This document shows positions 10,444 through 40,750 of a DNA stretch of 61,816 bases, piece by piece (the first letter of the stretch is position 1; each line of letters starts with the position of its first letter). The translations under genes and the position numbers were made by a program. This stretch comes from a virus. Lineage: Duplodnaviria > Heunggongvirae > Uroviricota > Caudoviricetes. Below the pieces are notes generated by a model. It saw only the letters and a list, made by a program, of their open reading frames with translations, did not search any database and was not told where the DNA came from. The DNA is taken from IMG/VR virus record IMGVR_UViG_2740892042_000003; one strand, written 5' to 3'.

Positions 10444-10776
10444 ATGAACCCTTATATTTATCTTGGTGGTGCAATACTTGCAGAGGTCATTGGTACAACC
10501 TTAATGAAGTTTTCAGAAGGTTTTACACGGTTATGGCCATCTGTTGGTACAATTATTTGTTATTGTGCATCATTCTGGTTATTAGCTCAGACGCTGGCTT
10601 ATATTCCTACAGGGATTGCTTATGCTATCTGGTCAGGAGTCGGTATTGTCCTGATTAGCTTACTATCATGGGGGTTTTTCGGCCAACGGCTGGACCTGCC
10701 AGCCGTTATAGGCATGATGTTGATTTGTGCCGGTGTGTTGGTTATTAATTTATTGTCACGAAGCACACCACATTAA
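10444..10776 (+). CDS. emrE: small multidrug resistance efflux transporter EmrE
   Basis: 110 aa MNPYIYLGGAILAEVIGTTLMKFSEGF... matches E. coli EmrE; AT-rich flanks. Confidence 0.95.
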   Translation: MNPYIYLGGAILAEVIGTTLMKFSEGFTRLWPSVGTIICYCASFWLLAQTLAYIPTGIAYAIWSGVGIVLISLLSWGFFGQRLDLPAVIGMMLICAGVLVINLLSRSTPH

Positions 10777-11020
10777 AAATAATTTCTTTTAAAAGACTGA
10801 AATATGGCGGTTCATATCTTTACATGGGCCGCTTTTGTTAATGTTTTTAGTTTTTGTGTATTCTTTTGTGCCTTCAAGATTATTGCGTAAGCAAATTGCA
10901 ATACGATTATTGTTGTATATTCAAAAGAATGTGATCGTAATTGTCTTTTTAAATAAAAATTAAACAAAAATTATATCTCACCACTAAGGTTTATAAAAGC
11001 ATACGTTAGCAGGTGTCACC

Positions 11021-22536: not shown

Positions 22537-22726
22537 GAGGTTGCCCTGTATTCAGTGTCGCTGATTTGTATTGTCTGAAGTTGTTTTTACGTTAAGTTGA
22601 TGCAGATCAATTAATACGATACCTGCGTCATAATTGATTATTTGACGTGGTTTGATGGCGTAGATGCACGTTGTGACATGTAGATGATAATTATTATCAT
22701 TTTGCGGGTCCTTTCCGGCGATCCGA

Positions 22727-22760
22727 CAGGTTACGGGGCGGAAGGCGCGCGGGTTTTCGC
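22727..22760. other. helper prophage cos site with divergent cosN
   Basis: flanks match lambda cosQ/cosN/cosB (cgggtcctttccggcgatccgacaggttacgggg ... cgcgggttttcgctatttatgaaaattttccgg) but central 12 nt read gggcggaaggcg instead of lambda gggcggcgacct. Confidence 0.6.
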
Positions 22761-22924: not shown

Positions 22925-23444
22925 ATGGAAGTCAACAAAAAGCAGCTGGCTGACATTTTCGGTGCGAGTATCCGTACCATTCAGAACTGGCAGGAGCAGG
23001 GAATGCCCGTTCTGCGAGGCGGTGGAAAGGGTAATGAGGTGCTTTATGACTCTGCCGCCGTCATAAAATGGTATGCCGAAAGGGATGCTGAAATTGAGAA
23101 CGAAAAGCTGCGCCGGGAGGTTGAAGAATTACGGCTGGCCAGCGAGGCAGATCTTCACCCCGGAACACTTGAATTTGAGCGCCATCGCCTGACTCGTGCT
23201 CAGGCGACGGCGCAGGAACTGAAAAATGCCAAAGAATCGGCTGAAGTGGTGGAAACCGCATTCTGTACTTTCGTGCTGTCGCGTATAGCAAGGGAAATAT
23301 CCAGTATTCTCGACGGTATTCCTCTGTCGGTGCAGCGACGTTTTCCTGAGCTGGATAACCGGCATATTGATTTCCTGAAACGGGATATCATCAAAGCCAT
23401 GAACAAAGCAGCCGCGCTGGATGAACTGATACCGGGGTTGCTGA

Positions 23445-23470
<26 letters not shown>
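22925..23470 (+). CDS. Nu1: terminase small subunit Nu1
   Basis: 181 aa near-identical to lambda Nu1. Confidence 0.95.
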
Positions 23471-26451
<2,981 letters not shown>

Positions 26452-26528
26452 AACCCTTGCTGCGTCTGGAATGTCGTTTTCCATGCTTTTGATGACCGTT
26501 CATCACCCTTCCAGTTTTTCGCGGTTTT

Positions 26529-26581
26529 GTGTATTGCAATGTGTATTGCAAATTGGCGATCGGGATGGGTGTGTATTGCAA
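26529..26581 (+). repeat. integrase arm-type repeats (left end of island)
   Basis: gtgtattgcaa at 26529, 26541, 26571, directly upstream of island int. Confidence 0.55.
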
Positions 26582-26599
26582 ATCTCTTGAGGGCTTTTA

Positions 26600-27841
26600 A
26601 TGGCTATTGAAAACAAACTCAGTGACAAACTGTTAAAGAGTCTTGTCGGAAAACGGCAGGACAAACAAAAAACAATAGCGGATGGGCGCGGGTTGTCTGT
26701 GCGTGTAAGCATGGTTGGGGGGATCAGCTTTGTTTTTTACTATCGTCTTGGTGGCAGGGAATCCCCTCCGGTATGGCTTACACTTGGTCGCTATCCTGAC
26801 ATGTCTCTTGCAACGGCCAGGCGCATGCGTGATCAGTGCCGTGAATGGCTGGCTGAAAATCTGGACCCCCGCAGGCAAATAAAACTTGCTGCCGAAAAAA
26901 CTATGCAACCAGTGACCGTAAGGGATGCGCTGTTTTACTGGTACGACAATCACGCCACAACAGCCAGAAAAGAGCATGAATATTTAATAAAACGATTTGA
27001 AAAGCATATCTTCCCCTATATCGGTGATATGGCTATAGAACAGTGCAAATTACACACATGGCTTACCGTCTTTGACAGGATCAAAAAAAATGCGCCTGTT
27101 ATGTCTGGTGCAATTTTTCTTGATATCAAACAGGCGTTGCGTTTTTGTCGCGTCAGGCAATACATCGCGTGCGATCCCTTTGGAGATATTAACGTAAGTT
27201 ATGTCGGGCGCTCATCCGGTATAAGGGATCGCGTTCTTAATATCAATGAAACCGCTGATGTATGGTCTTATGCTTACGGTAATAATTTGCTAACTCTGTC
27301 ATCAATATATAACCGAAGAATAATGGTTATCTGCCTGGTGTTTGGTTGCCGACAGCAGGAGGCGAGGCTATCCACCTGGGACGAATGGGATTTAAAAAAC
27401 TGGGTATGGACAGTCCCAAAAGAGCACAGCAAAAACAAGGAGGCTATAGTAAGGCCTGTTCCTGACGGAATAAAACAATGGATCGTTAATCTTTACGCAG
27501 AAACAAAAAATCGCGGTTATGTTGTCGGTTGTGCTTTGCAAAGGGCGACAATAACAGGGGCTGCAAACAGAATATGCAGGCGTCTTGGTCATGATACTAA
27601 TGGCTTGTGGTGCATACATGATTTCAGGCGCACATTTTCCACTACGCTTAATGATATGGGGGCGGATCCTTATATTGTCGAACTTCTTTTAGGTCATAAA
27701 GTGAAAGGGGTTGCTGGTGTTTACAATAAAAGCAGGCATATAAAGAAAAAACTTGAGGTGCTTAATATGTGGGTTAATTACCTTAATACGATAGCAGGAT
27801 TTAACAACAACGTTATCGAGCTTAATAAAGAGGTGGTGTGA
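26600..27841 (+). CDS. tyrosine integrase (P4/PICI-type)
   Basis: 413 aa; C-terminal HDFRRTFSTTL...LLGHK...GVAGVY catalytic region. Confidence 0.9.
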   Translation: MAIENKLSDKLLKSLVGKRQDKQKTIADGRGLSVRVSMVGGISFVFYYRLGGRESPPVWLTLGRYPDMSLATARRMRDQCREWLAENLDPRRQIKLAAEKTMQPVTVRDALFYWYDNHATTARKEHEYLIKRFEKHIFPYIGDMAIEQCKLHTWLTVFDRIKKNAPVMSGAIFLDIKQALRFCRVRQYIACDPFGDINVSYVGRSSGIRDRVLNINETADVWSYAYGNNLLTLSSIYNRRIMVICLVFGCRQQEARLSTWDEWDLKNWVWTVPKEHSKNKEAIVRPVPDGIKQWIVNLYAETKNRGYVVGCALQRATITGAANRICRRLGHDTNGLWCIHDFRRTFSTTLNDMGADPYIVELLLGHKVKGVAGVYNKSRHIKKKLEVLNMWVNYLNTIAGFNNNVIELNKEVV

Positions 27842-27842
27842 T

Positions 27843-28100
27843 ATGGCAATTTATTCTCTTGTTGATGAAAACGATTTGCGCACAATGAAGGACATTGATC
27901 GGTTCATTCGTGAAAAAGAGTGCATAGCACTTACCACGCTGGCAAACTCAACACGCTGGAAAATGGAGCAGGCAGGTAAATTCCCGCGACGTATCAAGAT
28001 CGGTGAACGTGCTGCAGGGTATCGACTTTCAGAGGTTCAGGCATGGATCCGTGGTGAGTGGCATCCTGGATGGAAACCTGGAAAAACAAAACAGCAATAA
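27843..28100 (+). CDS. AlpA-family regulator/excisionase
   Basis: 85 aa; directly after int; AlpA-like HTH region. Confidence 0.7.
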   Translation: MAIYSLVDENDLRTMKDIDRFIREKECIALTTLANSTRWKMEQAGKFPRRIKIGERAAGYRLSEVQAWIRGEWHPGWKPGKTKQQ

Positions 28101-28156
28101 CCAGTAAATAATGCCCCTCATCACGAGGGGTTTTTTGTCTATAAGGTAAAAACGCG

Positions 28157-28735
28157 ATGAATAAAAATATTGCCGTGACGGGCAAGGGGTACGCTCGTCC
28201 AGTGAAAAAATTCTGCGATATTCGTGATCTCGTCGTTCTGCGCTTTGATAGTGTGAACGTTCGTGTGGTGTATCTGAACGGCGATCCGTGGTTTGTTGCA
28301 AAAGATGTTTGTGCTGCGCTGGAACTAACCAATTCGCGTACGGCGTTGCAGATGCTTGATGATGATGAAAAGGGAGTAAATTTAACTTACACCCCAGGAG
28401 GAAATCAGAATATGAGAATTATCTCTGAGTCAGGTTTCTACAAACTAATAGCCCGCAGCCGCAAAGCAACGACGCCTGGCACATTTGCTCATCGTTTCAG
28501 TAACTGGGTATTCAGAAATGTGATACCAGGTATCAGAAAAACGGGGACTTATGGTATCCCGTGGGGTGCATTACAGGATTTTTCCCGCCGTAAAGAGCAA
28601 TATCAAATAAGTGCCAGCGAGAAGGGGAGGGAGCTACAGGCATGTAAGCGCAAAAAGCGTGAGCTGGAGGAAGAAGAAAAAACGCTGATACGTGAATATC
28701 AGCCTGAGTTTTACTTTGGTAACCGCATTCAGTGA
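28157..28735 (+). CDS. Bro-N domain antirepressor-like protein
   Basis: VVYLNGDPWFVAKDVCAALEL... Bro-N signature. Confidence 0.7.
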   Translation: MNKNIAVTGKGYARPVKKFCDIRDLVVLRFDSVNVRVVYLNGDPWFVAKDVCAALELTNSRTALQMLDDDEKGVNLTYTPGGNQNMRIISESGFYKLIARSRKATTPGTFAHRFSNWVFRNVIPGIRKTGTYGIPWGALQDFSRRKEQYQISASEKGRELQACKRKKRELEEEEKTLIREYQPEFYFGNRIQ

Positions 28736-29068
28736 CAAAACAAAGGCGACCGCAAAAGGGTCGCCAGTGGGAACAAGGGAAAACAAAAGCATCACCAACA
28801 ATGCCACATTTGCGGCTGGTGGGCAATGTGATCAGTCAGATTTGGTTCGTTCCAAGGTTTGCAACGAGAGCTTTTTCCTGTGCTCTTTAAGGAATTTCTC
28901 AAGAGCAAACGAACAAGGTGCGAATCTTTCTGATTCATGTTCATGCGCTATATTTTTGCGTCGCCTCTTACGAGTTGGTGATGGTGTTTTGGTTGATTCT
29001 GTGTCGCTCATGGTGCTGTCCTGTAAAGCAATGCGCCTGCGTTCCTCAAACTATGGCGCTGATATTGG

Positions 29069-29374
29069 CTATTCATGCTCTTTGACCTTGCGTCGCTGGA
29101 GTTCTTCACGCGCGACGGTGACGAGTTGCCCGATCTCCTCGGCTGCTTTGATGCCGATTTGTTCGACCTTAGCCAGGGCATCCAGTGACGACACAAGGGG
29201 ATTTTCTCCGCTGCCTTCTGCTTGGCGGCGGGCTATTTCTCCGCGCATGGCGGTTACGATAAATCCGGCATTGCTTTCACCGTCCAGCTTAACGGATTCC
29301 ATCCCTTGCATAACATCTAGTGGGACTCTGACAGTTGTCAGTTGTGATTTTGCGTTTTTGTTAGCCGTTGCCAT
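29069..29374 (-). CDS. putative ribbon-helix-helix repressor
   Basis: 101 aa; N-terminal QLTTVRVPLDVMQGME beta-strand/helix pattern; divergent from promoter/operator at 29436-29473. Confidence 0.45.
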   Translation of the reverse strand: MATANKNAKSQLTTVRVPLDVMQGMESVKLDGESNAGFIVTAMRGEIARRQAEGSGENPLVSSLDALAKVEQIGIKAAEEIGQLVTVAREELQRRKVKEHE

Positions 29375-29435
29375 TTCTGAAACTCCTAATCATCGGTGTG
29401 TTTCAGTATACACAAAAAAAGAAATACAAAAAGCC

Positions 29436-29473
29436 TTGACGTGTGTTTCATGCGCTCATAACATGAAACACAC
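29436..29473 (+). promoter_or_regulatory. sigma70-like promoter overlapped by a 12-bp perfect inverted-repeat operator
   Basis: ttgacg-17 nt-taacat; inverted repeat gtgtgtttcatg (29441-29452) / catgaaacacac (29462-29473). Confidence 0.5.
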
Positions 29474-29564
29474 CGAAAGGATTGTTGAAATACAAAGAGC
29501 AACGCCCCGCAGTGCTGGGAACACATACGGGGCGTCTAACCAACAACGTAAACTAGGAGCCGTT

Positions 29565-29762
29565 ATGGTTGCTGTAAATCATATACCACACCTTGTACAC
29601 ACACAAACGGCCTTTGTGTGGCGTTTTCTGGCACTGAGTGCCGGAGAATCTCAAATCATCCACGTAACCGCCTGGACGGAACGCGAAGCGCGTAGCCGTT
29701 GCCCGTCCGGTTGTGTTGCTGTATTCGCTGCAAAAATCCGCCAGGGAGTGAGTCATGCTTAA
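29565..29762 (+). CDS. small Icd-like protein (host cell-division inhibitor family)
   Basis: 65 aa MVAVNHIPHLVHTQTAFVWRF..., AGGAG RBS; pattern of P4-type Icd-like proteins. Confidence 0.5.
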   Translation: MVAVNHIPHLVHTQTAFVWRFLALSAGESQIIHVTAWTEREARSRCPSGCVAVFAAKIRQGVSHA

Positions 29763-29940
29763 AACCTTCCGTGTATTTGCCCGAGCTGTTAACCCAATAG
29801 GCCACACAATTGGTATCGCTCAGAATGTGAAGGCTGTTAATGTTCAGACGGCTATTGCTGCGGTGAGAAGCGAATCATCAGAATATGGCTTATCACAAGT
29901 CATTATTTCAGCAGTGTATGAATTAAAAGAGGTGCATTAA
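29755..29940 (+). CDS. hypothetical protein
   Basis: 61-aa ORF in island early operon. Confidence 0.3.
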   Translation: MLKTFRVFARAVNPIGHTIGIAQNVKAVNVQTAIAAVRSESSEYGLSQVIISAVYELKEVH

Positions 29941-30131
29941 TGCAGGAAATTACATTACACGAAGCCGCTGAACGTGCGCACCAGACAGAAATTATTTGCC
30001 GCCTTCTTGAGGTATACCCGAACAAAATTACAGATGCTGATATATCCGCACTGGCGAGCCTACTGGCGCGTCTTTCGGGAAGTGTCGCTAGTTTTTTGAT
30101 TGAGGAAGAAAGTAAGCTGGTGGGGGATTAA
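29940..30131 (+). CDS. hypothetical protein
   Basis: 63-aa ORF, tightly packed in operon. Confidence 0.3.
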   Translation: MQEITLHEAAERAHQTEIICRLLEVYPNKITDADISALASLLARLSGSVASFLIEEESKLVGD

Positions 30132-30353
30132 ATGAATACAGAACGGGAAGTCTTTTTTAAATTGTTAGCATGTGCAGAAAGTTCATTAACTTTAAATAAT
30201 TCAGCAAAAGCAATATTAAATATGTGGCTTGATTGCATAAATGACAATGAAGATGCAAATATTGCTTATGGCCTGTTGTCACTTATTGATGAATCAGCAG
30301 AAAAACTCAATGACGCAATAAATAGTGCCCTGCTATCAAATAAGTCGAGTTAA
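30132..30353 (+). CDS. hypothetical protein
   Basis: 73-aa ORF, AT-rich codon usage unlike neighbours. Confidence 0.3.
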   Translation: MNTEREVFFKLLACAESSLTLNNSAKAILNMWLDCINDNEDANIAYGLLSLIDESAEKLNDAINSALLSNKSS

Positions 30354-30370
30354 GTCGAGGAATAAATAAT

Positions 30371-30670
30371 ATGGAAATGAAAAATTCTGGCTTTATTGCT
30401 AGCGGCCCCGCTCGACCTGAATTTATGAACGGCGATATTTACCGCGATAAATACGGCGGCACGGTAACGATTAAAGGCGTGGCAGAACGGCGCATCACTT
30501 ACCGCCGTGAGGGGTATAGCTATGACTGCGTGATGCCTGTTTATCAGTTCCGGCGTGATTTTTCCCTGGTATATGCCGCACCCCGCAGTAAGCCCATCAG
30601 CAGGGAAAAAGCGTGGGGAAATATCCAGAAAATGAAAACCATGATTAACGGATTCAGAGGTAAAAAATGA
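30371..30670 (+). CDS. hypothetical protein
   Basis: 99-aa ORF overlapping primase start. Confidence 0.4.
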   Translation: MEMKNSGFIASGPARPEFMNGDIYRDKYGGTVTIKGVAERRITYRREGYSYDCVMPVYQFRRDFSLVYAAPRSKPISREKAWGNIQKMKTMINGFRGKK

Positions 30671-32418
30671 AACTGGCACCGAACTTAAAAAAACAGCCAC
30701 GCGACAGACTGACAGAGATAATCATCTTTGCAGGTAGTGATGCGTGGAGCCATGCGAAAGAGTGGCAGGAATGGGCGGGTAAACATATTGCCGCCGACGA
30801 TGTGCCGCCTGTCGTGTTGGCTGATGAGCAACTGAAAAACATCACCGATTACCGGATCATTGATGAAGATCGTCAGTGTGTGCGTGTTTACCGCGCAGGA
30901 CATATCACAGAGCACAGCATGACGCAGATTGTTACGTTACTGGCTGTGGCTGGAGTGAAGACCGTACACGAATACGCGGGGATTACTGACACCAGCCCAG
31001 TGGATTTATCCGACCAGTTGCCGCGACTCAAAGAGGAATGCGAGCGTGGGGAAAGCCTGGTGCTTAATCTTCCGACGAAGCAAAAGGCGCAACTTTCACA
31101 GATGGCAGACAGTGAGCGCGCGCAGCTGCTTGCCGAGCGCTTTGATGGCGTTTGTGTGCATCCGGAAAGTGAAATCGTTCACGTATGGCGCGGCGGGGTA
31201 TGGTGTCCGATCAGCACAATGGAGCTGAGCCGCGAAATGGTGGCGATCTATTCAGAGCACAGGGCCACTTTCAGCAAACGCGTGATCAATAACGCCGTTG
31301 AAGCGTTAAAAGTTATTGCCGAACCAATGGGCGAGCCGTCCGGCGATTTGCTGCCGTTCGCCAATGGTGCGCTTGACCTGAAAACGGGGGAATTTTCCCC
31401 GCACACGCCGGAGAACTGGATCACCACGCACAACGGCATTGAGTACACGCCACCAGCACCAGGGGAGAACATCCGCGATAACGCGCCAAACTTTCATAAA
31501 TGGCTTGAGCACGCAGCCGGAAAAGACCCGCGCAAGATGATGCGTATATGTGCCGCGCTGTACATGATTATGGCGAACCGGTACGACTGGCAGATGTTCA
31601 TTGAGGCCACCGGAGACGGGGGAAGCGGTAAGAGTACATTTACCCATATTGCCACCCTGCTTGCTGGCAAACAGAACACCGTAAGCGCAGAGATGACATC
31701 ACTCGATGATGCAGGAGGGCGCGCGCAGGTTGTCGGGAGTCGTCTTATCGTCCTTGCCGATCAGCCGAAATATACGGGGGAAGGCACGGGCATCAAGAAA
31801 ATCACGGGAGGCGATCCCGTTGAAATCAACCCGAAATATGAGAAGCGATTCACGACGATAATAAGGGCGGTGGTACTGGCAACCAATAACGACCCGATGA
31901 TCTTTACCGAACGGGCCGGAGGTGTGTCACGCCGTCGGGTGATTTTCCGGTTCGACAACATTGTAAGGGAGGACGAAAAAGACAAGGAATTACCGGAAAA
32001 GATAGCGGCAGAAATCCCCGTAATTATCCGCCGCTTGCTGGCTAATTTTGCTGACCCTGAAAAGGCACGGGCTTTATTACTGGAACAGCGTGACGGTGAT
32101 GAAGCTCTGGCAATAAAGCAGCAAACGGATCCGGTTGTTGAGCTTTGCGCGGCGCTGGAGTTTCTGGAGGAAGCTCGTGGGCTAATGATGGGCGGTGGTG
32201 GTGACACCGTGAAGTACACGACCAGAAACAGCCTTTACCGTGTCTATATGGCCTTCATGGCATATACAGGAAAGGGGAAATGTTTGAGCGTGAATGAGTT
32301 CGGAAAGGCTATGAGGTCAGCGGCGAAAGTTTACGGATATGAATATATTACGCGAAAAGTTAAGGGAGTCACGCAGACCAACGCAACGACTACTGATGAT
32401 TGCGATGCGTTTTTATAA
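30667..32418 (+). CDS. primase-helicase (P4 alpha/PICI Pri-Rep-like)
   Basis: 583 aa; Walker A GDGGSGKST and D5/P4-type helicase region. Confidence 0.85.
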   Translation: MKLAPNLKKQPRDRLTEIIIFAGSDAWSHAKEWQEWAGKHIAADDVPPVVLADEQLKNITDYRIIDEDRQCVRVYRAGHITEHSMTQIVTLLAVAGVKTVHEYAGITDTSPVDLSDQLPRLKEECERGESLVLNLPTKQKAQLSQMADSERAQLLAERFDGVCVHPESEIVHVWRGGVWCPISTMELSREMVAIYSEHRATFSKRVINNAVEALKVIAEPMGEPSGDLLPFANGALDLKTGEFSPHTPENWITTHNGIEYTPPAPGENIRDNAPNFHKWLEHAAGKDPRKMMRICAALYMIMANRYDWQMFIEATGDGGSGKSTFTHIATLLAGKQNTVSAEMTSLDDAGGRAQVVGSRLIVLADQPKYTGEGTGIKKITGGDPVEINPKYEKRFTTIIRAVVLATNNDPMIFTERAGGVSRRRVIFRFDNIVREDEKDKELPEKIAAEIPVIIRRLLANFADPEKARALLLEQRDGDEALAIKQQTDPVVELCAALEFLEEARGLMMGGGGDTVKYTTRNSLYRVYMAFMAYTGKGKCLSVNEFGKAMRSAAKVYGYEYITRKVKGVTQTNATTTDDCDAFL

Positions 32419-32434
32419 AAAATGGCAATGGTTA

Positions 32435-32670
32435 TCTACCTTGTCTACCTGACTGAAATAAAATACTTTTATTTCAATGTATTAATGCAGGTAGATAACT
32501 ATTTTTCACTGTCTACCTGTTATCTACCTTATCTACCCATTTTTGTAGACAGGTAAGGAGACGGGTAGAGATGAGGTAGACAGCTATTTGGGGCTGTCTA
32601 CCTCCCTGAAACCCGCGCCATTACTGGCCTGATAACTAATCAAGTAGACAAGGTAGACAAGGTGGTGGTG
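32435..32670. repeat. island replication origin iterons
   Basis: more than 12 copies of gtctacc / ggtagac in both orientations immediately 3' of the primase gene. Confidence 0.65.
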
Positions 32671-32707
32671 CACAAAAAACTTTTTAAACGAGGGGGTAAA
32701 AATAAAA

Positions 32708-32965
32708 ATGCACACATCAGGAAAACTGAACAAACATATAAAGCCACATTACCGCGCCCTTGATATGGCTGAACACTGGCTAAGGGTGGCGATTAAGGCA
32801 ATAGACCGCAACGCCGGGGAAGGATACGCGAAAGCACATCCCGAACTGATAAGCGCATTCATGACAACGGCGGCTGCAAACTTTGCCACGCTGACCGAAC
32901 GGGAGATTGCCGAAGCGGAACAGGTGACAACCATCAATGTTAAAACCGGAGAGCAGACAGCATGA
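32708..32965 (+). CDS. hypothetical protein
   Basis: 85-aa ORF overlapping ssb start. Confidence 0.35.
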   Translation: MHTSGKLNKHIKPHYRALDMAEHWLRVAIKAIDRNAGEGYAKAHPELISAFMTTAAANFATLTEREIAEAEQVTTINVKTGEQTA

Positions 32966-33384
32966 CAGCACAGATAGCGGCTTACGGGCGGCTGGTGGCT
33001 GACCCGCAGTTAAAGACCACCAGCAAAGGGACACAAATGGCGATGGCGAGTATGGCGGTTCCCCTGCCGTGCAGCCAGGCAGATGACGGAACGGCGACGA
33101 TGTGGTTATCCGTCCTGGCGTTTGGCAGACAGGCCGACGCACTGGCAAAACACCACAAAGGCGAACTGGTGAGCGTGGCGGGTAACATGCAGGTAAGCCA
33201 GTGGACAGGCCAGAACGGCGAAACGCGGCGGGGCTGGCAGGTTATCGCAGACAGCGTAATCAGTGCGCGAACGGCGCGACCGGGCGGCAAAAAAGGCCAG
33301 CAGGGGCAGGCCACTGACGCACTGAACAGGGCAAAACAACAGTCGGGGAATGATGATCCGTACGGCGATAATATACCGTTTTAA
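32962..33384 (+). CDS. ssb: single-stranded DNA-binding protein
   Basis: 140 aa; OB-fold N-terminus, Gly/Gln-rich linker and C-terminal ...DDPYGDNIPF tail. Confidence 0.8.
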   Translation: MTAQIAAYGRLVADPQLKTTSKGTQMAMASMAVPLPCSQADDGTATMWLSVLAFGRQADALAKHHKGELVSVAGNMQVSQWTGQNGETRRGWQVIADSVISARTARPGGKKGQQGQATDALNRAKQQSGNDDPYGDNIPF

Positions 33385-33595
33385 ATTCTGCAAACAAAAA
33401 GATGCCGGAAAAAAATAGATTTTCCGGCATGCTACATAAATCCCGACCAAAGGAAGTAAATACATTAACACGAATTATCAGCACTGAAGTTGTTACGGCA
33501 TATTTTATACAACATTGCACTTGGTTGCATGTATTCGCATAGCAGACATCGGTAATAGAATATATTCACAATTATTTGTAATGAATGTAAAGAGG

Positions 33596-34643
33596 ATGAG
33601 TATGGTTGATTTATATTCGCCTACACAGCTTGTGCAGGTGGCTAATGCTGAAGATGTGCAAAAAAAAATTAAATGCGTTGTTTACCAGTTTGTTTTTCAC
33701 TCGCTCGGTAATGTTTGAATCGAGAGACATTATTCTTGATACGATCGACGATCCAAATATCCCGATCGCGGCGTTTTGCTCTCCTATGGTGGGCAGTAAA
33801 GTTTCACGAGATGAGGGATACGAATCAAAAACAATTCGTCCAGGTTATATGAAGCCGAAAAGCAGCATTGATCCAAATAAGTTAGCTGTGCGCCCTGCTG
33901 GTGTGTCACCTGAGCAATACAATGCTTTTGGGGCGCGTAATATTAAAGTTAAACAGGCGATTGTAAATCAGGCTAAAGCTATTCGTGCACGTATTGAATG
34001 GCTTGCTGTTCAGGCAATCACAACGGGGAAAAATATCATTGAGGGCGATGGTATTGAACGTTATGAGCTGGACTGGAATATAAAACCACAAAATATCATC
34101 ACTCAGTCTGGCGGTACTGAGTGGTCAGGTAAGGATAAAGAAACTTTTGATCCAAATGATGATATTGAGAGCTACGCAGAATTTAGTGAGGGCGTCACTA
34201 ATATCATCATTATGGGTGGTAATGTATGGAAGAAATACCGTTCATTCAGAGCGATAAAAGAGGCTTTGGATACCCGTCGTGGTTCTAATTCCGAACTGGA
34301 AACGGCCCTTAAAGACCTTGGTGATTCGGTGAGTTTTAAAGGGTATATGGGCGATGTTGCGATTGTTGTTTACAGCGGGCGTTATACCGACGAGGACGGA
34401 ACAGAAAAACATTTCCTTGATCCTGATTTGATGGTGCTTGGCAATACGGCTCTTCAGGGGATTGTCGCCTATGGCGGTATTCAGGATCCGGAGCTAATCC
34501 GAATGGGGCTGACTAAAGCCGAACTTGCACCGAAAAACTATATTGTGCCTGGTGATCCGGCTATTGAATATGTGCAGACACATTCAGCACCACAGCCAAT
34601 ACCGGCCCGCATCAATCGTTTTGTTACCGTTCGCATTGGCTAA
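33596..34643 (+). CDS. gpE-like major capsid protein, frameshifted at an A9 tract
   Basis: AAGAGG RBS and ATG at 33596; MSMVDLYSPTQLVQVANAEDVQKK aligns with lambda E N-terminus, then homology continues in +1 frame after A9 run 33660-33668 (LNALFTSLFFTRS... to end); about 40 percent similar to prophage E. Confidence 0.75.
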
Positions 34644-34652
34644 GGGGGAGCA

Positions 34653-34994
34653 ATGGCTACTCATTACACTGAACTCATGGCTGGCACTGAAGCACTGGTG
34701 ACTACGCTGGGGATATTTTCAGCTAATAAAGGGGTAATTCCTGCATTTACGCCACTGATGCAGGAAGATGCAACAGGTGCACTGGTGGTATGGGATGGTT
34801 CGAGCGTAGGTAAAGCGGTTTATGTTTCCGCTGTACAAATCGACACAGCGAAAAAAACACAGGCACAGGTTTATAAGACAGGTGTTTTAAATGTTGATGC
34901 TCTGAACTGGCCTGAGTCTGTAAAAGAACTGTCGGCAAAGGTTGCCGCGTTTGTTGGCTCAGGTATTTCTGTTCAGCCGCTGGCTCGTGTGTAA
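34653..34994 (+). CDS. gpD-like head decoration protein
   Basis: 113 aa; TPLMQEDATGALVVWDGSS aligns with lambda [21 protein letters not shown]. Confidence 0.7.
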   Translation: MATHYTELMAGTEALVTTLGIFSANKGVIPAFTPLMQEDATGALVVWDGSSVGKAVYVSAVQIDTAKKTQAQVYKTGVLNVDALNWPESVKELSAKVAAFVGSGISVQPLARV

Positions 34995-35005
34995 AGGGGG
35001 ATACA

Positions 35006-35389
35006 ATGCAGAATCATTACAATGACCTTAAGCCAATTGCCGAAATGATGTATCCGGATCCAGCAGTAGAGGAATTAAAGGCTATTGCTGACAAAATGCG
35101 TTTAAGTGAACGCCTTGTTGATATGAATCAGGTGATGGAACTTACTACCCTTAGCCGTCGCACATTGCTAAACCTTGAGGCTCGCGGAGAGTTCCCCGAA
35201 CGCGTACAGGTTACGGAAGGGCGTAAGGCCTGGTATTTAAGTGAAGTGATCGACTGGATAAACAATATTCCTCGATCTTCTGAATATTGCCGCGTACCTG
35301 TCCCAAAAAAGCCAGATGCGGCGCTATGCCTCAAGATTGAGCGTGTACGTCGCAATGCACGGGATGGTCGCTATAAGTTGATTGGTTGA
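35006..35389 (+). CDS. AlpA-family transcriptional regulator
   Basis: ELTTLSRRTLLNLEARGEFPERVQVTEGRKAWYLSEVIDWI AlpA-type HTH. Confidence 0.6.
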   Translation: MQNHYNDLKPIAEMMYPDPAVEELKAIADKMRLSERLVDMNQVMELTTLSRRTLLNLEARGEFPERVQVTEGRKAWYLSEVIDWINNIPRSSEYCRVPVPKKPDAALCLKIERVRRNARDGRYKLIG

Positions 35390-35445
35390 TGAAATTAGGG
35401 CCCGTTCTGGCTGGCGGGTCCTTTCCGGCGATCCGGTAGGCTACG

Positions 35446-35479
35446 GGGCGGCGACCTCGCGGGTTTTCGCTATTTATGA
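35446..35479. other. island cos site with lambda-identical cosN
   Basis: gggcggcgacctcgcgggttttcgctatttatga, preceded by cosQ-like cgggtcctttccggcgatccggtagg. Confidence 0.65.
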
Positions 35480-35590
35480 GCCTTTTTCGGGTGCTGGTGG
35501 TGGTTTTGTTGCTCGCTCTATCTCTATGAATAAAAAGGAAAAGATAAAGCCAATACACCAACCTGAAACATTACTTAAGTGGGGATATTG

Positions 35591-36133
35591 ATGAAATCGC
35601 ACCTGATGAACAAAAAAAACATGGCGCAAAGCTGCCGTGTAAGTGCGACAGCGTTCGACAAGTGGGGAGTGACTCCCGTTGAACGTAAAGGCCGCGAGGC
35701 GTTTTATGATGTTGCCAGCGTAATAGACAATCGGGTTAGCAATGCAATTAACCAGATTACAGACGACAAAGGCGAGATTGATGATGATGAACTCCTACGA
35801 GTCAGGATCAGATTGCTGACAGCACAGGCAGAGGCGCAGGAGCTTAAAAACGAGCGCGAACGCGGCGACGTTATTGATACAGCGTTTTGTATATACGTGC
35901 TTTCAAAATTGGCGAGTCAGATTTCTTCAATCATGGACAGCCTGCCGCTTGCCATGACAAGGAAGTTTCCCGACATGAAGCCGTCTATGCTGGATGGACT
36001 GAAAAAAGAAGTTATCAGAGCCTGTAACGCATGCGCAAAACTTGACGAAAACATACCGCTGATGCTGTCCGATTATCTGATGGAAACTGCCGGAAACGTA
36101 CCGGATAAGTTGCAGCCGAATAAAGATAAGTAA
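35591..36133 (+). CDS. Nu1-like terminase small subunit
   Basis: aligns with lambda Nu1 (NKKQ...; ELKN...VIDTAFCIYVLSKLASQISSIMDSLPLAMTRKFPDM vs ELKNAKESAEVVETAFCTFVLSRIAREISSILDGIPLSVQRRFPEL). Confidence 0.7.
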   Translation: MKSHLMNKKNMAQSCRVSATAFDKWGVTPVERKGREAFYDVASVIDNRVSNAINQITDDKGEIDDDELLRVRIRLLTAQAEAQELKNERERGDVIDTAFCIYVLSKLASQISSIMDSLPLAMTRKFPDMKPSMLDGLKKEVIRACNACAKLDENIPLMLSDYLMETAGNVPDKLQPNKDK

Positions 36134-36144
36134 CGTAGTACGCT

Positions 36145-36426
36145 ATGACTGAATCCGAAATACTGCGATTAATCCGCCGTGCTTGTGGAATCAGCAAGCA
36201 GCATGACGAACAGGCCACGCAGCCGGACAGCGTGACCGCAGATAATTATGTGCGTGTAGTGGCTGAGGTGATGCGCCGTGACGGTATTGAGCTTAACGGC
36301 GTGGATATGCGCAACATACGAACAAGAGTCCTTGAGTTGCTGGCATATCGTCGCCGTTCTCAACAACGGAGGGAGAGCGCGAAAAATACTTACCAGTGGA
36401 AGAAGCCGGAACGATTGCGGCGGTAA
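36145..36426 (+). CDS. hypothetical Arg-rich protein
   Basis: 93-aa ORF directly after island terS. Confidence 0.35.
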   Translation: MTESEILRLIRRACGISKQHDEQATQPDSVTADNYVRVVAEVMRRDGIELNGVDMRNIRTRVLELLAYRRRSQQRRESAKNTYQWKKPERLRR

Positions 36427-36680
36427 CTTGCTGATATTCCCGATAACGCAAAATTGCGCTGGCTGACTTGTTGCATTGCAAAAAGTTAAGCAGGAAGGCA
36501 CGGCCTGTAAGATGGGATGCAGTAAGTAGTTCAAGGCTACCTTGTGCTGGCACGCACAGTTAAGCCGTCGGTGCTGGATATCCCCCACTGGGGGAAAAGC
36601 TGGCTACATCCCTCACATCTGAGGACTGATAACGCGACATTGCGCTGGCTGGCAAAGTGCAAAATTGCACGATGGCCTAA

Positions 36681-36817
36681 CCCATTGATTATTTCGAAAA
36701 CCTGCAATGCAGGAAATCGGGGAAGTAAGCCTAAGCTATTGATTGTTTCGAAAACCCCCATTGGGGGATGTCGGGAAAGTAAGACTAACCCATTGATTCT
36801 TCCACAATCCTCAATTT
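36681..36817 (+). repeat. three direct repeats near island right end (candidate TerS/cosB-like binding sites)
   Basis: cccattgattatttcgaaaacc, gctattgattgtttcgaaaacc, cccattgattcttccacaatcc, each near a G5/C5 hairpin. Confidence 0.45.
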
Positions 36818-37140
36818 GAGGAGGCCGGAACGTCTACATAGCTGCATCGCCGTAATGATGATTCAGCCCACCAGTCAAATCAGCACAGCAACGACAGAAT
36901 AGCCCGACACAGAAAAACCACGAATATGGGGTTTTTGTTATGACATGGTCATGATGACCACTCATACAAAACAGGTAAAGCCCACCAGCCTGATTAAAGG
37001 TTAACCGGAAAAAAGCCAGGTATCCAATCTCGATATGGGGATCCCTATATCGACATTAACGCCCACTAAAACTGTGCATATATGCATAGAAAAAGCATCC
37101 ACCAGCTTTATGACGGATGCCGCTCATCTTATAAATAATC

Positions 37141-37162
37141 GTGTATTGCAGTGTGTATTGCG
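37141..37162 (+). repeat. integrase arm-type repeats (right end of island)
   Basis: gtgtattgca gtgtgtattgcg, same motif as left-arm repeats. Confidence 0.55.
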
Positions 37163-37235
37163 ACTCCTTTAAACGATAGGTCTGAGCATTCGTAATGTAC
37201 TGTTTTTAAATTTTATTTTTTCCTGTCTTTTCATA

Positions 37236-38015
37236 AAGGCGATGTATGCCGCCACCATTGAGAGTGAGCTGGATACGCAGTCAGCGATGGATTTTATTCT
37301 GGGCGCGAACAGTAAGGAGCAGCGGGACAAGCTGACCGGCTGGATTGGTGAAATTGCCGCGTATTACGCCGCAGCACCGGTCCGTCTGGGAGGCGCAAAA
37401 GTGCCGCACCTGATGCCGGGGGACTCACTGAACCTGCAGACGGCTCAGGACACGGATAACGGCTACTCCGTGTTTGAGCAGTCACTGCTGCGGTATATCG
37501 CTGCCGGACTGGGTGTCTCGTATGAGCAGCTTTCCCGGAATTACGCCCAGATGAGCTACTCCACGGCACGGGCCAGCGCGAACGAGTCGTGGGCGCACTT
37601 TATGGGGCGGCGAAAATTCGTCGCATCCCGTCAGGCGAGCCAGATGTTTCTGTGCTGGCTGGAAGAGGCCATCGCCCGCCGCGTGGTGACGTTACCTTCA
37701 AAAGCGCGCTTCAGTTTTCAGGAAGCCCGCAGTGCCTGGGGGAACTGCGACTGGATAGGCTCCGGTCGTATGGCCATCGATGGTCTGAAAGAAGTTCAGG
37801 AAGCGGTGATGCTGATAGAAGCCGGGCTGAGTACCTACGAGAAAGAGTGTGCAAAACGCGGCGATGACTATCAGGAAATTTTTGCCCAGCAGGTCCGTGA
37901 AACGATGGAGCGTCGTGCAGCCGGTCTTAAACCACCCGCCTGGGCGGCTGCGGCATTTGAATCCGGGCTGCGACAATCAACAGAGGAGGAGAAGAGTGAC
38001 AGCAGAGCTGCGTAA
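37236..38015 (+). pseudogene. B: portal protein B, C-terminal 257 codons
   Basis: MYAATIESELDTQSAMDF... matches lambda gpB residues 277-533; 276 + 257 = 533. Confidence 0.85.
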
Positions 38016-39327
38016 TCTCCCGCATATTGCCAGCATGGCCTTTAATGAGCCGCTGATGCTTGAACCCGCCTATGCGCGGGTTTTCTTTTGTGCGCTTGCA
38101 GGCCAGCTTGGGATCAGCCGCCTGACGGATGCGGTGTCCGGCGACAGCCTGACTGCCCAGGAGGCACTCGCGACGCTGGCATTATCCGGTGATGATGACG
38201 GACCACGACAGGCCCGCAGTTATCAGGTCATGAACGGCATCGCCGTGCTGCCGGTGTCCGGCACGCTGGTCAGCCGGACGCGGGCGCTGCAGCCGTACTC
38301 GGGGATGACCGGTTACAACGGCATTATCGCCCGTCTGCAACAGGCTGCCAGCGACCCGATGGTGGACGGCATTCTGCTCGATATGGACACGCCAGGCGGA
38401 ATGGTGGCGGGGGCATTTGACTGCGCTGACATCATCGCCCGTGTGCGTGACATAAAACCGGTATGGGCGCTGGCCAACGACATGAACTGCAGTGCAGGTC
38501 AGCTGCTTGCCAGTGCCGCCTCCCGGCGTCTGGTCACGCAGACCGCCCGGACAGGCTCCATCGGCGTCATGATGGCTCACAGTAATTACGGTGCTGCCCT
38601 GGAGAAACAGGGTGTGGAAATCACGCTGATTTACAGCGGCAGCCATAAGGTGGATGGCAATCCCTACAGCCATCTTCCGGATGACGTCCGGGAGACACTG
38701 CAGTCCCGGATGGACGCAACCCGCCAGATGTTTGCGCAGAAGGTGTCGGCATATACCGGCCTGTCTGTGCAGGCTGTGCTGGATACCGAGGCTGCAGTGT
38801 ACAGCGGTCAGGAGGCCATTGATGCCGGACTGGCTGATGAACTTGTTAACAGCACCGATGCGATCACCGTCATGCGTGATGCACTGGATGCGCGTAAATC
38901 CCGTCTCTCAGGAGGGCGAATGACCAAAGAGACTCAATCAACAACTGTTTCAGCCACTGCTTCGCAGGCTGACGTTACTGACGTGGTGCCAGCGACGGAG
39001 GGCGAAAACGCCAGCGCGGCGCAGCCGGACGTGAACGCGCAGATCACCGCAGCGGTTGCGGCAGAAAACAGCCGCATTATGGGGATCCTCAACTGTGAGG
39101 AGGCTCACGGACGCGAAGAACAGGCGCGCGTTCTGGCAGAAACCCCCGGAATGACCGTGGAAACGGCCCGCCGCATTCTGGCTGCAGCACCACAGAGTGC
39201 ACAGGCGCGCAGTGACACTGCGCTGGATCGTCTGATGCAGGGTACACCGGCACCGCTGGCTGCAGGTAACCTGGCATCTGATACCAATAAAGAATTACTT
39301 AATACACCTGAAGCTTTACCGGTATAA
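37996..39327 (+). CDS. C: capsid protease/scaffold C (Nu3 nested in frame)
   Basis: near-identical to lambda gpC from GTG start (V)TAELRNLPHIASMAF... Confidence 0.9.
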   Translation: MTAELRNLPHIASMAFNEPLMLEPAYARVFFCALAGQLGISRLTDAVSGDSLTAQEALATLALSGDDDGPRQARSYQVMNGIAVLPVSGTLVSRTRALQPYSGMTGYNGIIARLQQAASDPMVDGILLDMDTPGGMVAGAFDCADIIARVRDIKPVWALANDMNCSAGQLLASAASRRLVTQTARTGSIGVMMAHSNYGAALEKQGVEITLIYSGSHKVDGNPYSHLPDDVRETLQSRMDATRQMFAQKVSAYTGLSVQAVLDTEAAVYSGQEAIDAGLADELVNSTDAITVMRDALDARKSRLSGGRMTKETQSTTVSATASQADVTDVVPATEGENASAAQPDVNAQITAAVAAENSRIMGILNCEEAHGREEQARVLAETPGMTVETARRILAAAPQSAQARSDTALDRLMQGTPAPLAAGNLASDTNKELLNTPEALPV

Positions 39328-39336
39328 GAGGCAGTT

Positions 39337-39669
39337 ATGGCGACAAAAGAAGAGTTTAACCATTACCAGCCGCTGGGTAACAGTGATCCGGCTCATACAG
39401 CAATTGCGCCTGGCGGATTGAGTGCGAAAACGCCTGCAATGACCCCGCTGATGCTGGATGGCACTACCCGTAAGCTGGTTGTGTGGGATGGCACCACCGA
39501 CGGTGCAGCCGTTGGCATTCTGGCGGTTGCTGCTGACCAGACCAGCACCACACTGACGTTCTACAAGTCCGGCTCGTTTCGTTATGAGGATGTGCTCTGG
39601 CCGGAGGCTGCCAGCGACGAGACTAAAAAACGGACCGCGTTTGCCGGAACGGCAATCAGCATCGTTTAA
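39337..39669 (+). CDS. D: head decoration protein D
   Basis: 110 aa matching lambda gpD. Confidence 0.95.
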
Positions 39670-39724
39670 TCTTCCCCTTCATCAACAAAGGCCGCCTGTG
39701 CGGCTTTTTTTATGGAAATAATTT

Positions 39725-40750
39725 ATGTCTGTATATACAACTGCAGAATTACTGGCATCGACCCAGCATCACTTTAAGTTCGATCCGCTGTTTCTGCGCC
39801 TGTTTTTCCGTGAAACCTATCCTTTCACCACGGAAAAAGTCTATCTCTCACAAATTCCGGGACTGGTAAACATGGCGCTGTACGTTTCGCCGATTGTTTC
39901 CGGTGAGGTTATCCGATCCCGTGGCGGCTCCACCTCTGAATTTACGCCGGGTTATGTCAAACCCAAGCATGAGGTGAATCCGCAGATGACCCTGCGTCGC
40001 CTGCCGGATGAAGATCCGCAGAACCTGGCTGACCCGGCTTACCGTCGTCGCCGTATTATTCGGCAGAATATGCTGGATGAAAATCTGGCGATTGCCCAGG
40101 TCGAAGAGATGCAGGCAGTTTCTGCCGTGCTTAAGGGCAAATACACCATGACCGGTGAAGCCTTCGATCCGGTTGAGGTGGATATGGGCCGCAGTGCGGC
40201 GAATAACATCACGCAGTCCGGCGGCACAGAGTGGAGCAAGCGTGACAAGTCCACGTATGACCCGACCGACGATATCGAAGCCTACGCGCTGAACGCCAGC
40301 GGTGTGGTGAATATCATCGTGTTTGATCCGAAAGGCTGGGCGCTGTTCCGTTCCTTCAAGGCCGTCAAGGAGAAGCTGGATACCCGTCGCGGCTCTCATT
40401 CCGAGCTGGAGACAGCGGTAAAAGACCTGGGCAAAGCGGTGTCTTATAAGGGAATGTATGGCGATGTGGCCATCGTCGTGTATTCCGGACAGTACGTGGA
40501 AAACGGCGTCAAAAAGAACTTCCTGCCGGACAACACGATGGTGCTGGGGAACACTCAGGCACGCGGTCTGCGCACCTATGGTTGCATTCAGGATGCGGAC
40601 GCACAGCGCGAAGGCATTAACGCCTCTGCCCGTTACCCGAAAAACTGGGTGACCACCGGCGACCCGGCGCGTGAGTTCACCATGATTCAGTCAGCACCGC
40701 TGATGCTGCTGGCTGACCCTGATGAGTTCGTGTCCGTTCAACTGGCGTAA
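39725..40750 (+). CDS. E: major capsid protein E
   Basis: 341 aa matching lambda gpE. Confidence 0.95.
   Translation: MSVYTTAELLASTQHHFKFDPLFLRLFFRETYPFTTEKVYLSQIPGLVNMALYVSPIVSGEVIRSRGGSTSEFTPGYVKPKHEVNPQMTLRRLPDEDPQNLADPAYRRRRIIRQNMLDENLAIAQVEEMQAVSAVLKGKYTMTGEAFDPVEVDMGRSAANNITQSGGTEWSKRDKSTYDPTDDIEAYALNASGVVNIIVFDPKGWALFRSFKAVKEKLDTRRGSHSELETAVKDLGKAVSYKGMYGDVAIVVYSGQYVENGVKKNFLPDNTMVLGNTQARGLRTYGCIQDADAQREGINASARYPKNWVTTGDPAREFTMIQSAPLMLLADPDEFVSVQLA

Follow-up and report, generated by a model that had tools for sequence, protein, structure and literature searches.

How does a satellite that sits inside a lambdoid prophage secure the packaging of its own DNA? This question was raised by the window analysed here, which is the whole 61,816-nucleotide stretch of IMG/VR virus record IMGVR_UViG_2740892042_000003 (Caudoviricetes). 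In this window, an island of about 10.84 kb splits the portal gene of a resident lambdoid prophage, and it carries a lambda-type cos site followed directly by a gene for a small terminase subunit (TerS) of the Nu1 family. The reading favored here, at a probability of roughly 60%, is that the island, a helper-embedded phage-inducible chromosomal island (HE-PICI, a class of phage-inducible chromosomal islands, PICIs), has a packaging module made up of lambda-type cosQ and cosN for the large terminase subunit (TerL, gpA in lambda) of the helper, a private cosB and its own full-length Nu1-family TerS. A first-pass annotation of the locus had described a packaging hijack. That description was supported, in that every part of it accessible to computation held and points to such a function.

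The Cos Site of the Island

The cos site and the adjoining gene consist of the following features, in which positions with a plus sign are counted from the first base of the cohesive end.

35416–35422, + strand: cosQ-like heptamer GGGTCCT, with the same sequence and the same distance to cosN as at the lambda right end
35446–35457, + strand: 12-nucleotide cohesive end of cosN, GGGCGGCGACCT; the lambda-identical stretch extends to 35479
35591–36133, + strand: gene for the satellite small terminase TerS, 180 amino acids (aa), Nu1 family (Pfam PF07471, PHROG 57, BLASTP to the resident Nu1; RefSeq WP_000835282.1, "terminase small subunit")

Direct reading and comparison with lambda (NC_001416) showed that window positions 35446–35479, with the sequence GGGCGGCGACCTCGCGGGTTTTCGCTATTTATGA, were identical to lambda bases 1–34 at 34/34 positions, exactly as the first-pass annotation had claimed, and an exact match of 34 bases cannot be attributed to chance. 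The cosQ-like stretch reported 5′ of cosN was also recovered: the 32 bases upstream matched the right end of lambda at 27 positions, the heptamer included, and the heptamer was invariant in 9/9 aligned satellite cos regions. The cohesive-end 12-mer of the island was found at a single place in the window, and allowing one mismatch added no further site. Beyond the identical stretch, the identity to lambda dropped to 59/166 between +35 and +200. Because the similarity collapsed past +34, the island was without the lambda cosB (R3, I1, R2, and R1), and no lambda or phage-21 cosB was found in its cos region by comparison with the lambda and phage-21 types. The ATG of the TerS gene was located at +146, 111 bp beyond the end of the identical stretch, which agreed with the earlier estimate of about 110 bp. 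A promoter and terminator scan of 34900–37300 gave no signal above shuffles near cos or TerS. The degenerate cosN pattern TACGGGGCGNNAGGCGCGC, scanned across genome contigs, returned mostly chance matches from GC-rich genomes.

The Satellite Small Terminase

The assignment of TerS to the Nu1 family was evaluated by profile and pairwise comparisons. The Pfam Phage_Nu1 model (PF07471), for which the cut-off was 30 bits, matched TerS with 85.8 bits (E 3e-24) over profile positions 80–162 only, i.e., the C-terminal half. The match to PHROG 57 ("terminase small subunit") was full-length, covering residues 1–176 with an E-value of 5e-51, and PHROG 10446, a C-terminal fragment family, was matched at E 4e-6. 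The identity was 36% to the Nu1 of the resident prophage (BLASTP, E 8e-36) and 36–41% to helper Nu1 proteins. In an alignment that combined 12 members of the family with three TerS proteins of phages, the N-terminus was Nu1-like (NKK..A....t...W...P...G.E..yD.A), the linker was about 20 residues shorter than that of Nu1, and conservation was strong from RLxxAQAxAQELKN through to the end. The central self-association region of lambda Nu1 (residues 100–140) was 51% identical to the island protein, and residues 141–181, the reported TerL-binding region, were 44% identical, with the motif IP..L..Y retained; the phage-21-type TerS of CFT073 prophage 4 reached 32% over the same segment, below the value of the island TerS. 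TerL binding has been assigned to the C-terminal 40 or so residues and TerL specificity to the C-terminal half (PMC9026076). TerS is thus a Nu1 family member by sequence, in a satellite setting, and its C-terminal segment corresponds to the gpA-binding part of lambda Nu1, so that gpA binding is predicted. The earlier claim of alignment with Nu1 over both functional regions stood for the gpA-interaction part; the DNA-binding part was weakly similar, and its fold was given by a model of medium confidence.

In this AlphaFold2 model (mean pLDDT, predicted local distance difference test, 69; N-terminus 72–83), the N-terminus formed a winged helix-turn-helix (HTH) domain in the order beta-alpha-alpha-beta-beta-alpha. 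The best Foldseek matches were MerR-type winged-HTH domains at probabilities of 0.96–0.99, and the winged HTH is the fold class reported for the DNA-binding domains of Nu1 and of Rpp (RppC). A MerR- or excisionase-like regulator that has lost its packaging function and controls, for example, satellite or helper late transcription would account for these fold matches, which were topped by MerR-family and excisionase proteins, and the satellite does have other AlpA-type HTH genes. However, the matches covered only the first 60 or so residues, whereas the other two thirds of the protein were specifically Nu1-like, and the fixed place of the gene beside cos points to packaging. A regulatory role in place of packaging was thus judged highly improbable. 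NCBIfam was without a model for TerS, the 93-aa open reading frame (ORF) downstream of it, or the AlpA-like protein.

The family was widely distributed. It comprised 188 detectable members, all named small terminase; identity was 72–99% for the E. coli members and 58–61% for those of Citrobacter and Enterobacter. Family members were present in 765/5426 complete E. coli genomes (approximately 14%), including O157:H7 and extraintestinal pathogenic strains, and they formed a clade of their own spanning E. coli, Citrobacter, and Enterobacter. They were also found in classic chromosomal PICIs distant from any prophage. The ORFs were intact across hundreds of genomes and several genera, with lengths of 169–180 aa, mostly 180 aa. 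The ratio of nonsynonymous to synonymous substitution rates (dN/dS) was 0.21 when the window copy was compared with that of O157 and 0.04 for a pair of Enterobacter-type copies; TerS is under purifying selection. A Nu1-family gene normally adjoins the gene of its large subunit; the island had no TerL gene, and the gene after TerS was the 93-aa ORF. The satellite-specific small subunit of the first-pass annotation therefore proved to be a conserved, selected, full-length Nu1-family gene.

A Candidate Private CosB

Two half-sites between cosN and the TerS gene, and a set of repeats further downstream, were considered as the DNA target of TerS.

35495–35510, + strand: candidate cosB half-site 1, TGGTGGTGGTTTTGTT, at +50 to +65, the lambda R3 position; binding predicted
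35551–35565, − strand: candidate cosB half-site 2, CAATACACCAACCTG (reverse complement CAGGTTGGTGTATTG), at +106 to +120, the lambda R2 position; binding predicted
36675–36836, + strand: three tandem 54-bp repeats, each starting with GCCTAACCCATTGATT and containing a different small GC-rich hairpin; also in EcCICFT073

The interval from cos to the ATG was aligned for nine loci, namely, the window, the O157 PICI, six Enterobacter/Citrobacter-type HE-PICIs, and EcCICFT073, the last being a PICI that carries the packaging adaptor RppA. The elements cosQ, cosN, and GCTATTTATGA were invariant, and in the TerS-type islands, so was the core GGTGGTGG at +50 to +65. This core of half-site 1 was kept from E. 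coli to the Enterobacter/Citrobacter islands, the TerS proteins of which are only 58–61% identical, and the motif at +50 to +65 was conserved where the flanking sequence diverged. Half-site 2 started at +106 in 27/27 distinct sequences, and its opposite strand, CAGGTTGGTGTATTG, was an inverted relative of half-site 1. In lambda, R3 occupies bp 50–65, and R2, which is inverted relative to R3, occupies bp 108–123; the proposed R3-PICI occupies bp 48–65. The private cosB that the first-pass annotation had presumed thus finds a counterpart in a conserved sequence at the R3 and R2 positions, to which binding is predicted. An R1-like third site was not found in this cosB candidate.

The pairing of the cosB motif with the downstream gene was then counted over all cos sites from the fetched loci. 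Island-type TerS genes were preceded by the GGTGGTGGT motif (GGTGGT-type) or a one-base variant in 29/29 cases, lambda R3 was paired with a lambda-type Nu1 in 99 of 100, and ACCACCACC was paired with RppA in 3/3. An apparent phage-21-like cos before island-type TerS was rejected as a scoring artefact, the weak cross-scores being 230–270 versus 330–915 in true members. In a divergent subfamily (L276, L287, L215, and L302), half-site 1 was changed to GGTGGTTGTTGTTT and half-site 2 to AGGTTGTTGTATTT, and alongside both half-sites the putative recognition helix was changed from SCRVSATAF to SIGISVQAF. This joint change is suggestive of co-evolution between the half-sites and the recognition helix, in about three lineages. 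A site resembling that of integration host factor (IHF), with one mismatch, was present in the spacer, at +74, in the divergent subfamily and in one Enterobacter/Citrobacter-type island.

The tandem repeats had been proposed, as 36681–36817, to be bound by TerS. They were rejected as cosB: EcCICFT073, an Rpp-type island, also has them after its 93-aa ORF (L005, about 38705–38830), and in the window they are 1.2 kb away from cosN, close to attR. Because of this presence in EcCICFT073 and the distance from cosN, the repeats are not a TerS-specific cosB, and 35495–35565 is the better candidate. An Rfam search of the whole island, including the 54-bp repeats, gave no match at E-values up to 0.1.

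The conserved motif at +50 to +65 bears on whether TerS has any role in specificity. TerS might be a spare helper late gene that was captured passively, with packaging achieved through the lambda-like cosN and cosQ alone. HE-PICIs are documented to capture helper late genes near their insertion sites (Tommasini et al.), the window island also has gpE- and gpD-like genes, and the cos sites of EcCICFT073 give low-level transfer without the cognate protein. However, the island TerS was only 36–41% identical to helper Nu1s, its DNA-binding domain was distinct and its linker shorter by about 20 residues, and its clade extended to Citrobacter, Enterobacter, and chromosomal PICIs far from prophages. 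Moreover, it was invariably accompanied by the same private motif. Passive capture is therefore quite improbable, and a private cosB read by the satellite TerS remains the favored explanation.

TerS and RppA as Alternative Cassettes

The late end of EcCICFT073 consists of the capsid gene, the decoration gene, a small ORF, cos1, rppA (144 aa), an inverted cos2, the 93-aa ORF, and terminal repeats. The window island had the same late order, with its cos and TerS occupying the slot of cos1 and rppA. EcCICFT073 and the PICI of O157:H7 EC4115 shared the same chromosomal site and were colinear at 88–97% identity except for one segment, which starts about 40 bp after cosN, ends at cos2, and holds rppA in EcCICFT073 and a TerS family member in EC4115. 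As colinearity was interrupted only by that segment, rppA and TerS act as alternative cassettes.

A second, inverted cos with a phage-21-like cosB was observed just after the specificity gene in classic PICIs of both the Rpp type (L005, 38285–38340) and the TerS type (L007, 15700–15760). In classic PICIs, the two cos copies flank the segment in which Rpp-type islands depart from TerS-type ones. The window island was without the second cos, and only 11 bp lay between TerS and the next ORF.

The cassettes were compared at the protein level. The TerS gene shares the position of an Rpp gene, directly 3′ of a PICI cos with lambda-like cosQ and cosN and a non-phage cosB. BLASTP of TerS versus RppA gave no alignment at an E-value of 100 or below, and hhalign of the TerS family versus RppA gave an E-value of 0.13 at a probability of 0.5%, with the winged-HTH regions aligned without significance. 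RppA matched PHROG 57 at positions 12–52 only. Rpps are proteins of 135–153 aa with a winged HTH and dimerisation helices of their own, without a TerL-binding end. On account of the lack of a significant sequence match, the length of 180 aa, and the presence of the Nu1 central and C-terminal regions, membership of TerS in the Rpp group was rejected; TerS and RppA are non-homologous beyond the modelled winged HTH, which is topologically equivalent.

These data also bear on the main rival explanation, in which TerS would act in the manner of an Rpp, forming mixed oligomers with the helper Nu1, blocking the recognition of the phage cosB, and steering the Nu1–gpA complex to the satellite cosB, so that the helper TerS would still be required. 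The gene lies exactly in the rppA position, directly 3′ of the satellite cos, the central self-association region is 51% identical to that of lambda Nu1, and Rpp itself acts by binding TerS (PMC6739421). However, TerS has no detectable relationship to RppA, and it keeps the whole C-terminal half of Nu1, unlike the Rpps. Furthermore, the distinct helical domain through which Rpp binds the DNA-binding domain of TerS is absent from the island protein. Redirection of this type is considered unlikely, and the recruitment of helper gpA by the satellite TerS itself is preferred.

The Resident Prophage and the Cohesive-End Alleles

The helper functions would be supplied by the resident prophage, the packaging region of which has the following features.

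22736–22747, + strand: cosN of the resident prophage; its cohesive end, GGGCGGAAGGCG, is a variant in which 5/12 bases differ from the lambda end GGGCGGCGACCT
22925–25370, + strand: resident nu1 (22925–23470) and A (23445–25370); Nu1 matches Pfam Phage_Nu1 with 318 bits

Alignment of both cos regions with lambda had been suggested as a check. The island cosN was lambda-identical; the resident site matched lambda at 55/60 positions upstream and at 7/12 in the cohesive end, with a lambda-like cosB; the resident cosQ was located at 22706–22712, and R3, R2, and R1 were of the lambda type. A copy of this helper cos region with 100% identity is present in E. coli strain 582 (NZ_CP120568.1). Hence the claim of a helper-compatible nicking site holds with respect to lambda-type gpA in general, but the island site is not identical to that of the resident helper. 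The resident A gene is presumably the source of the large terminase subunit for the satellite. The resident gpA differed from lambda gpA at 4/641 residues, and helper gpA was approximately 99% identical to lambda gpA in 4/4 embedded cases.

The exact GGGCGGAAGGCG variant was found in 55 IMG/VR contigs, of which 49 had a lambda-type cosB, one a phage-21-like cosB, and four a TerS-island cosB; because it recurs in this way, the variant cohesive end is not a product of decay. One contig (L033) combined a variant helper with a canonical satellite, as in the window. In complete E. coli genomes, the variant was rare, with at most 18/4596 matching records at least 99% identical over the region, and a TerS-type island with the variant cohesive end had no exact copy there, the best identity being 97.3%. 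The variant 12-mer GGGCGGAAGGCG was absent from the searchable literature.

Whether any gpA residue tracked the cosN allele was evaluated in 29 variant and 39 canonical prophages, and none did. T466I, which was promising in three prophages, failed across this set and was rejected. As no gpA residue follows the allele, lambda-type gpA probably cuts both cosN alleles. The TerL endonuclease has been described as having no high sequence specificity and as relying on TerS for its positioning. From this low specificity and the allele-independent gpA, we infer that the resident gpA is able to nick the canonical cosN of the satellite.

The locus could also be a decaying remnant, in which cos and TerS are non-functional relics and the satellite is trapped in a defective prophage. 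Many HE-PICI helpers look truncated, the resident cosN is unusual, and TerS-type PICIs were transferred poorly in 2018. However, the dN/dS values of 0.04–0.21, the intact ORFs (169–180 aa) over hundreds of genomes and several genera, and the invariance of cosQ, cosN, and the motifs make decay extremely improbable, and a functional packaging module is preferred.

Two further cos types were observed. In the avian pathogenic E. coli strain APEC E14033 (NZ_CP126948.1), the same variant prophage type hosts a capsid-gene (capE-type) HE-PICI with a third allele, GGGCGTCAGGCG (L006, 31684–31695). The cosB of this island is lambda-like (R3/R2/R1), and TerS and Rpp are both absent from the island, which indicates a third satellite strategy, i.e., mimicry of the helper cosB. 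A further cos-like site, GGGCGGGAGCAT, which has another 12-mer after ACG and precedes CATCACCACCAATG, was seen in a cspD-clpS PICI and one viral contig (L016 and L296).

Identity and Architecture of the Island

The boundaries of the island and its landmarks outside the packaging module are as follows.

26400–37243, + strand: HE-PICI, about 10.84 kb, splitting the prophage portal gene
26530–26549, + strand: HE-PICI doubled motif TGTATTGCAATGTGTATTGC, attL-side copy, exact match, starting about 135 bp after the att core
36145–36426, + strand: conserved 93-aa ORF after the packaging cassette, PHROG 1561 (unknown function)
37142–37161, + strand: HE-PICI doubled motif TGTATTGCAGTGTGTATTGC, attR-side copy, exact match, starting about 94 bp before the att core

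The portal gene B was split at about codon 271–274 of lambda B, its N-terminal part lying at 25570–26399 and its C-terminal part running from 37244 (to 38015). The att identity block AAGGCGAT was present at both junctions (26392–26399 and 37236–37243). Because B was interrupted and the island brought no replacement sequence, the helper is without a portal protein until the satellite excises. The doubled motif tgTGTATTGCantgTGTATTGCa occurred exactly twice in the window, where 0.01 matches were expected by chance. In published HE-PICIs, a doubled TGTATTGC motif lies approximately 81 bp upstream and 132 bp downstream of the attP centre (PMC10111431), and the spacing of both window copies to the att core agreed with that report. 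The portal gene is also among the 14 late-gene targets of HE-PICIs (Tommasini, Mageeney and Williams; bioRxiv 10.1101/2022.07.18.500453; PMC10111431). The island, inserted in a lambdoid portal gene, is an HE-PICI of the class described by Tommasini et al. (2023). With the identical integrase WP_000963723.1, it was also found in lambdoid prophage portal genes of A0 34/86, APEC O2-211, and SCEC020022.

The gene order was int, HTH, BRO-N, Icd-like, DUF4222, primase, single-stranded DNA-binding protein (SSB), gpE-like, gpD-like, AlpA-like HTH, cos, TerS, and the 93-aa ORF, and all core genes were on the + strand. Genes for a gpE-like major capsid protein (Pfam Phage_cap_E, E 1e-40) and a gpD-like decoration protein (HDPD, E 4e-15) were located at 33606–34994 and were distinct from the helper copies at 39337–40750; the equivalent genes of EcCICFT073 are dispensable for transfer. 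Of the set that marks capsid-forming PICIs (own portal, protease, head–tail connectors, TerL, and HNH), none was present, the late genes being limited to the gpE-like, gpD-like, and TerS genes. The 93-aa ORF was 76% identical to the ORF downstream of rppA and cos2 in EcCICFT073. According to Fillol-Salom (2018), RgdR is encoded by all E. coli PICIs; no source names the 93-aa ORF as RgdR, and all members of its cluster are annotated as "hypothetical".

In the Enterobacter/Citrobacter-type HE-PICIs (L008–L013, about 10560–11900), TerS was followed by variable reverse-strand cargo, either FRG and DUF3892 or a 402-aa ORF, and one of these islands had a TIR-domain gene near int. The reverse-strand cargo and the TIR gene may be defence cargo.

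Proposed Mechanism

The course described here is what we infer for DNA binding, gpA recruitment, preferential packaging, and multimer packaging from the sequences, homology, conservation, selection, co-occurrence, and cassette swap that were directly observed. Upon helper induction, the composite would replicate, and the satellite would excise late, thereby restoring the portal gene; late excision has been shown for 11capE (PMC10111431). The predicted winged-helix N-terminus of the satellite TerS would bind the private cosB at 35495–35565, and its C-terminal half would recruit the helper gpA, which would nick cosN at 35446/35457. Satellite concatemers, not phage DNA, would then be cut at cosN and packaged into helper proheads. 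The probable load is about four satellite units (43.4 kb) per lambda-sized head, a length within the size range that the lambda head accepts, and EcCICFT073 is known to be packaged into full-size heads in multimeric form. By competing for gpA, the satellite would, in addition, lower the packaging of the helper.

Several observations weigh against this scheme. The resident cosN does not share the cohesive end of the island. Residues 1–68 of lambda Nu1, the DNA-binding part, were only about 34% identical to the island TerS, the Foldseek E-values for the N-terminus were weak (0.08–0.3), and a PDB sequence search with TerS gave nothing relevant at E-values up to 10, the Nu1 and Rpp structures not being recovered. 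No IHF-like site was found in the A-rich spacer of the window island. Moreover, the conserved central oligomerisation region would allow mixed oligomers with the helper Nu1, so that TerS may not act independently of the helper TerS.

A broader proposal may tentatively be drawn, at somewhat less than even odds. Enterobacterial cos satellites would have two interchangeable cassettes bounded by cos sites, i.e., an Rpp adaptor that needs the helper TerS, or a full-length satellite TerS that makes up a satellite-only terminase with helper gpA, without any need for the helper Nu1, and recognises a private cosB of the R3/R2 type; moreover, a minimum of two cohesive-end alleles (GGGCGGCGACCT and GGGCGGAAGGCG), cut by the same gpA, would be common to lambdoid helpers and their satellites. 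If true, the shared alleles would constitute a previously undescribed layer of cosN polymorphism.

Comparison With Known Systems

E. coli PICIs with a lambda-like cos and a foreign cosB (2018), TerS-encoding E. coli PICIs (2018), Rpp (2019), and HE-PICIs (2023) have all been published (PMC6092414, PMC6739421, PMC10111431). The arrangement described here is thus not new, and no paper that dissects the mechanism of a Nu1-type satellite TerS or its cosB was found in the literature, the coverage of which was incomplete. Among Gram-negative cos satellites, Rpp is the sole packaging hijack with a resolved mechanism. The PICIs of IHE3034 and 18098 were reported to "encode TerS", gave 110 or fewer transductants, and had no helper found (Fillol-Salom, 2018); such TerS-encoding PICIs were set aside at that time for want of a helper. 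The window names a candidate, because here a TerS satellite sits in a lambdoid prophage with a near-lambda gpA. The two half-sites, the recognition helix, and the C-terminal tail are mutable targets, so whether the satellite replaces, rather than adapts, the helper small terminase is testable with lambda genetics. The transfer route of these islands is also practically relevant because they carry accessory and defence genes.

Other satellites offer close comparisons. Similar to cos1 and rppA of EcCICFT073 (Fillol-Salom, 2018, 2019; Murialdo and Feiss, 2022), the island module occupies the same slot, combines cosQ and cosN of the lambda type, the cohesive end being identical, lacks the lambda R sites, and has a specificity gene with an N-terminal winged HTH, which for TerS is modelled; the private sequence of EcCICFT073 lies at bp 48–65. 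Unlike the 144-aa RppA, in which the dimerisation domain is unrelated and a TerL-binding end is missing, the island TerS is a 180-aa full-length Nu1 homologue; the island motif is GGTGGTGGT rather than the ACCACCACC of EcCICFT073, and the inverted second cos is missing. The TerS of IHE3034 (ECOK1_RS04630) belongs to the present family, with 86% nucleotide identity and the same late module, but the IHE3034 and 18098 PICIs are located at the chromosomal site cspD-clpS, whereas the window island is embedded in its candidate helper. With the 11capE HE-PICI (Tommasini, Mageeney and Williams, 2023), the island shares a co-oriented, integrase-driven insertion in a lambdoid late gene, TGTATTGC flanking attP, and the same gene zones. 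However, 11capE is described as being without terS and as sharing a helper-like cos of about 258 bp, whereas the window island has its own TerS and a candidate private cosB.

Compared with Nu1 and cosB (R3-I1-R2-R1) of lambda itself, the protein family is the same, the gene lies just 3′ of cos, and half-site candidates occur at the R3 and R2 positions. The island differs in having no adjacent large-terminase gene, no R1-like site, and no recognisable IHF site; in its TerS, the DNA-binding domain is 34% identical, the linker is shorter by about 20 residues, and the start codon lies at +146, compared with +191 in lambda. The strategy proposed for the island resembles that of the pac-type Staphylococcus aureus pathogenicity islands (SaPIs), in which the satellite provides only a small subunit that works with the helper large subunit, so that satellite DNA is recognised. 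SaPI packaging differs in being of the headful (pac) type, the SaPI TerS belongs to an unrelated family, and interference is the task of a separate protein, Ppi, whereas the window island is of the cos type and no Ppi-like factor was identified in it. In the island module, the SaPI "own TerS" strategy rather probably has its equivalent among cos phages, and the module is an alternative cassette to the Rpp adaptor.

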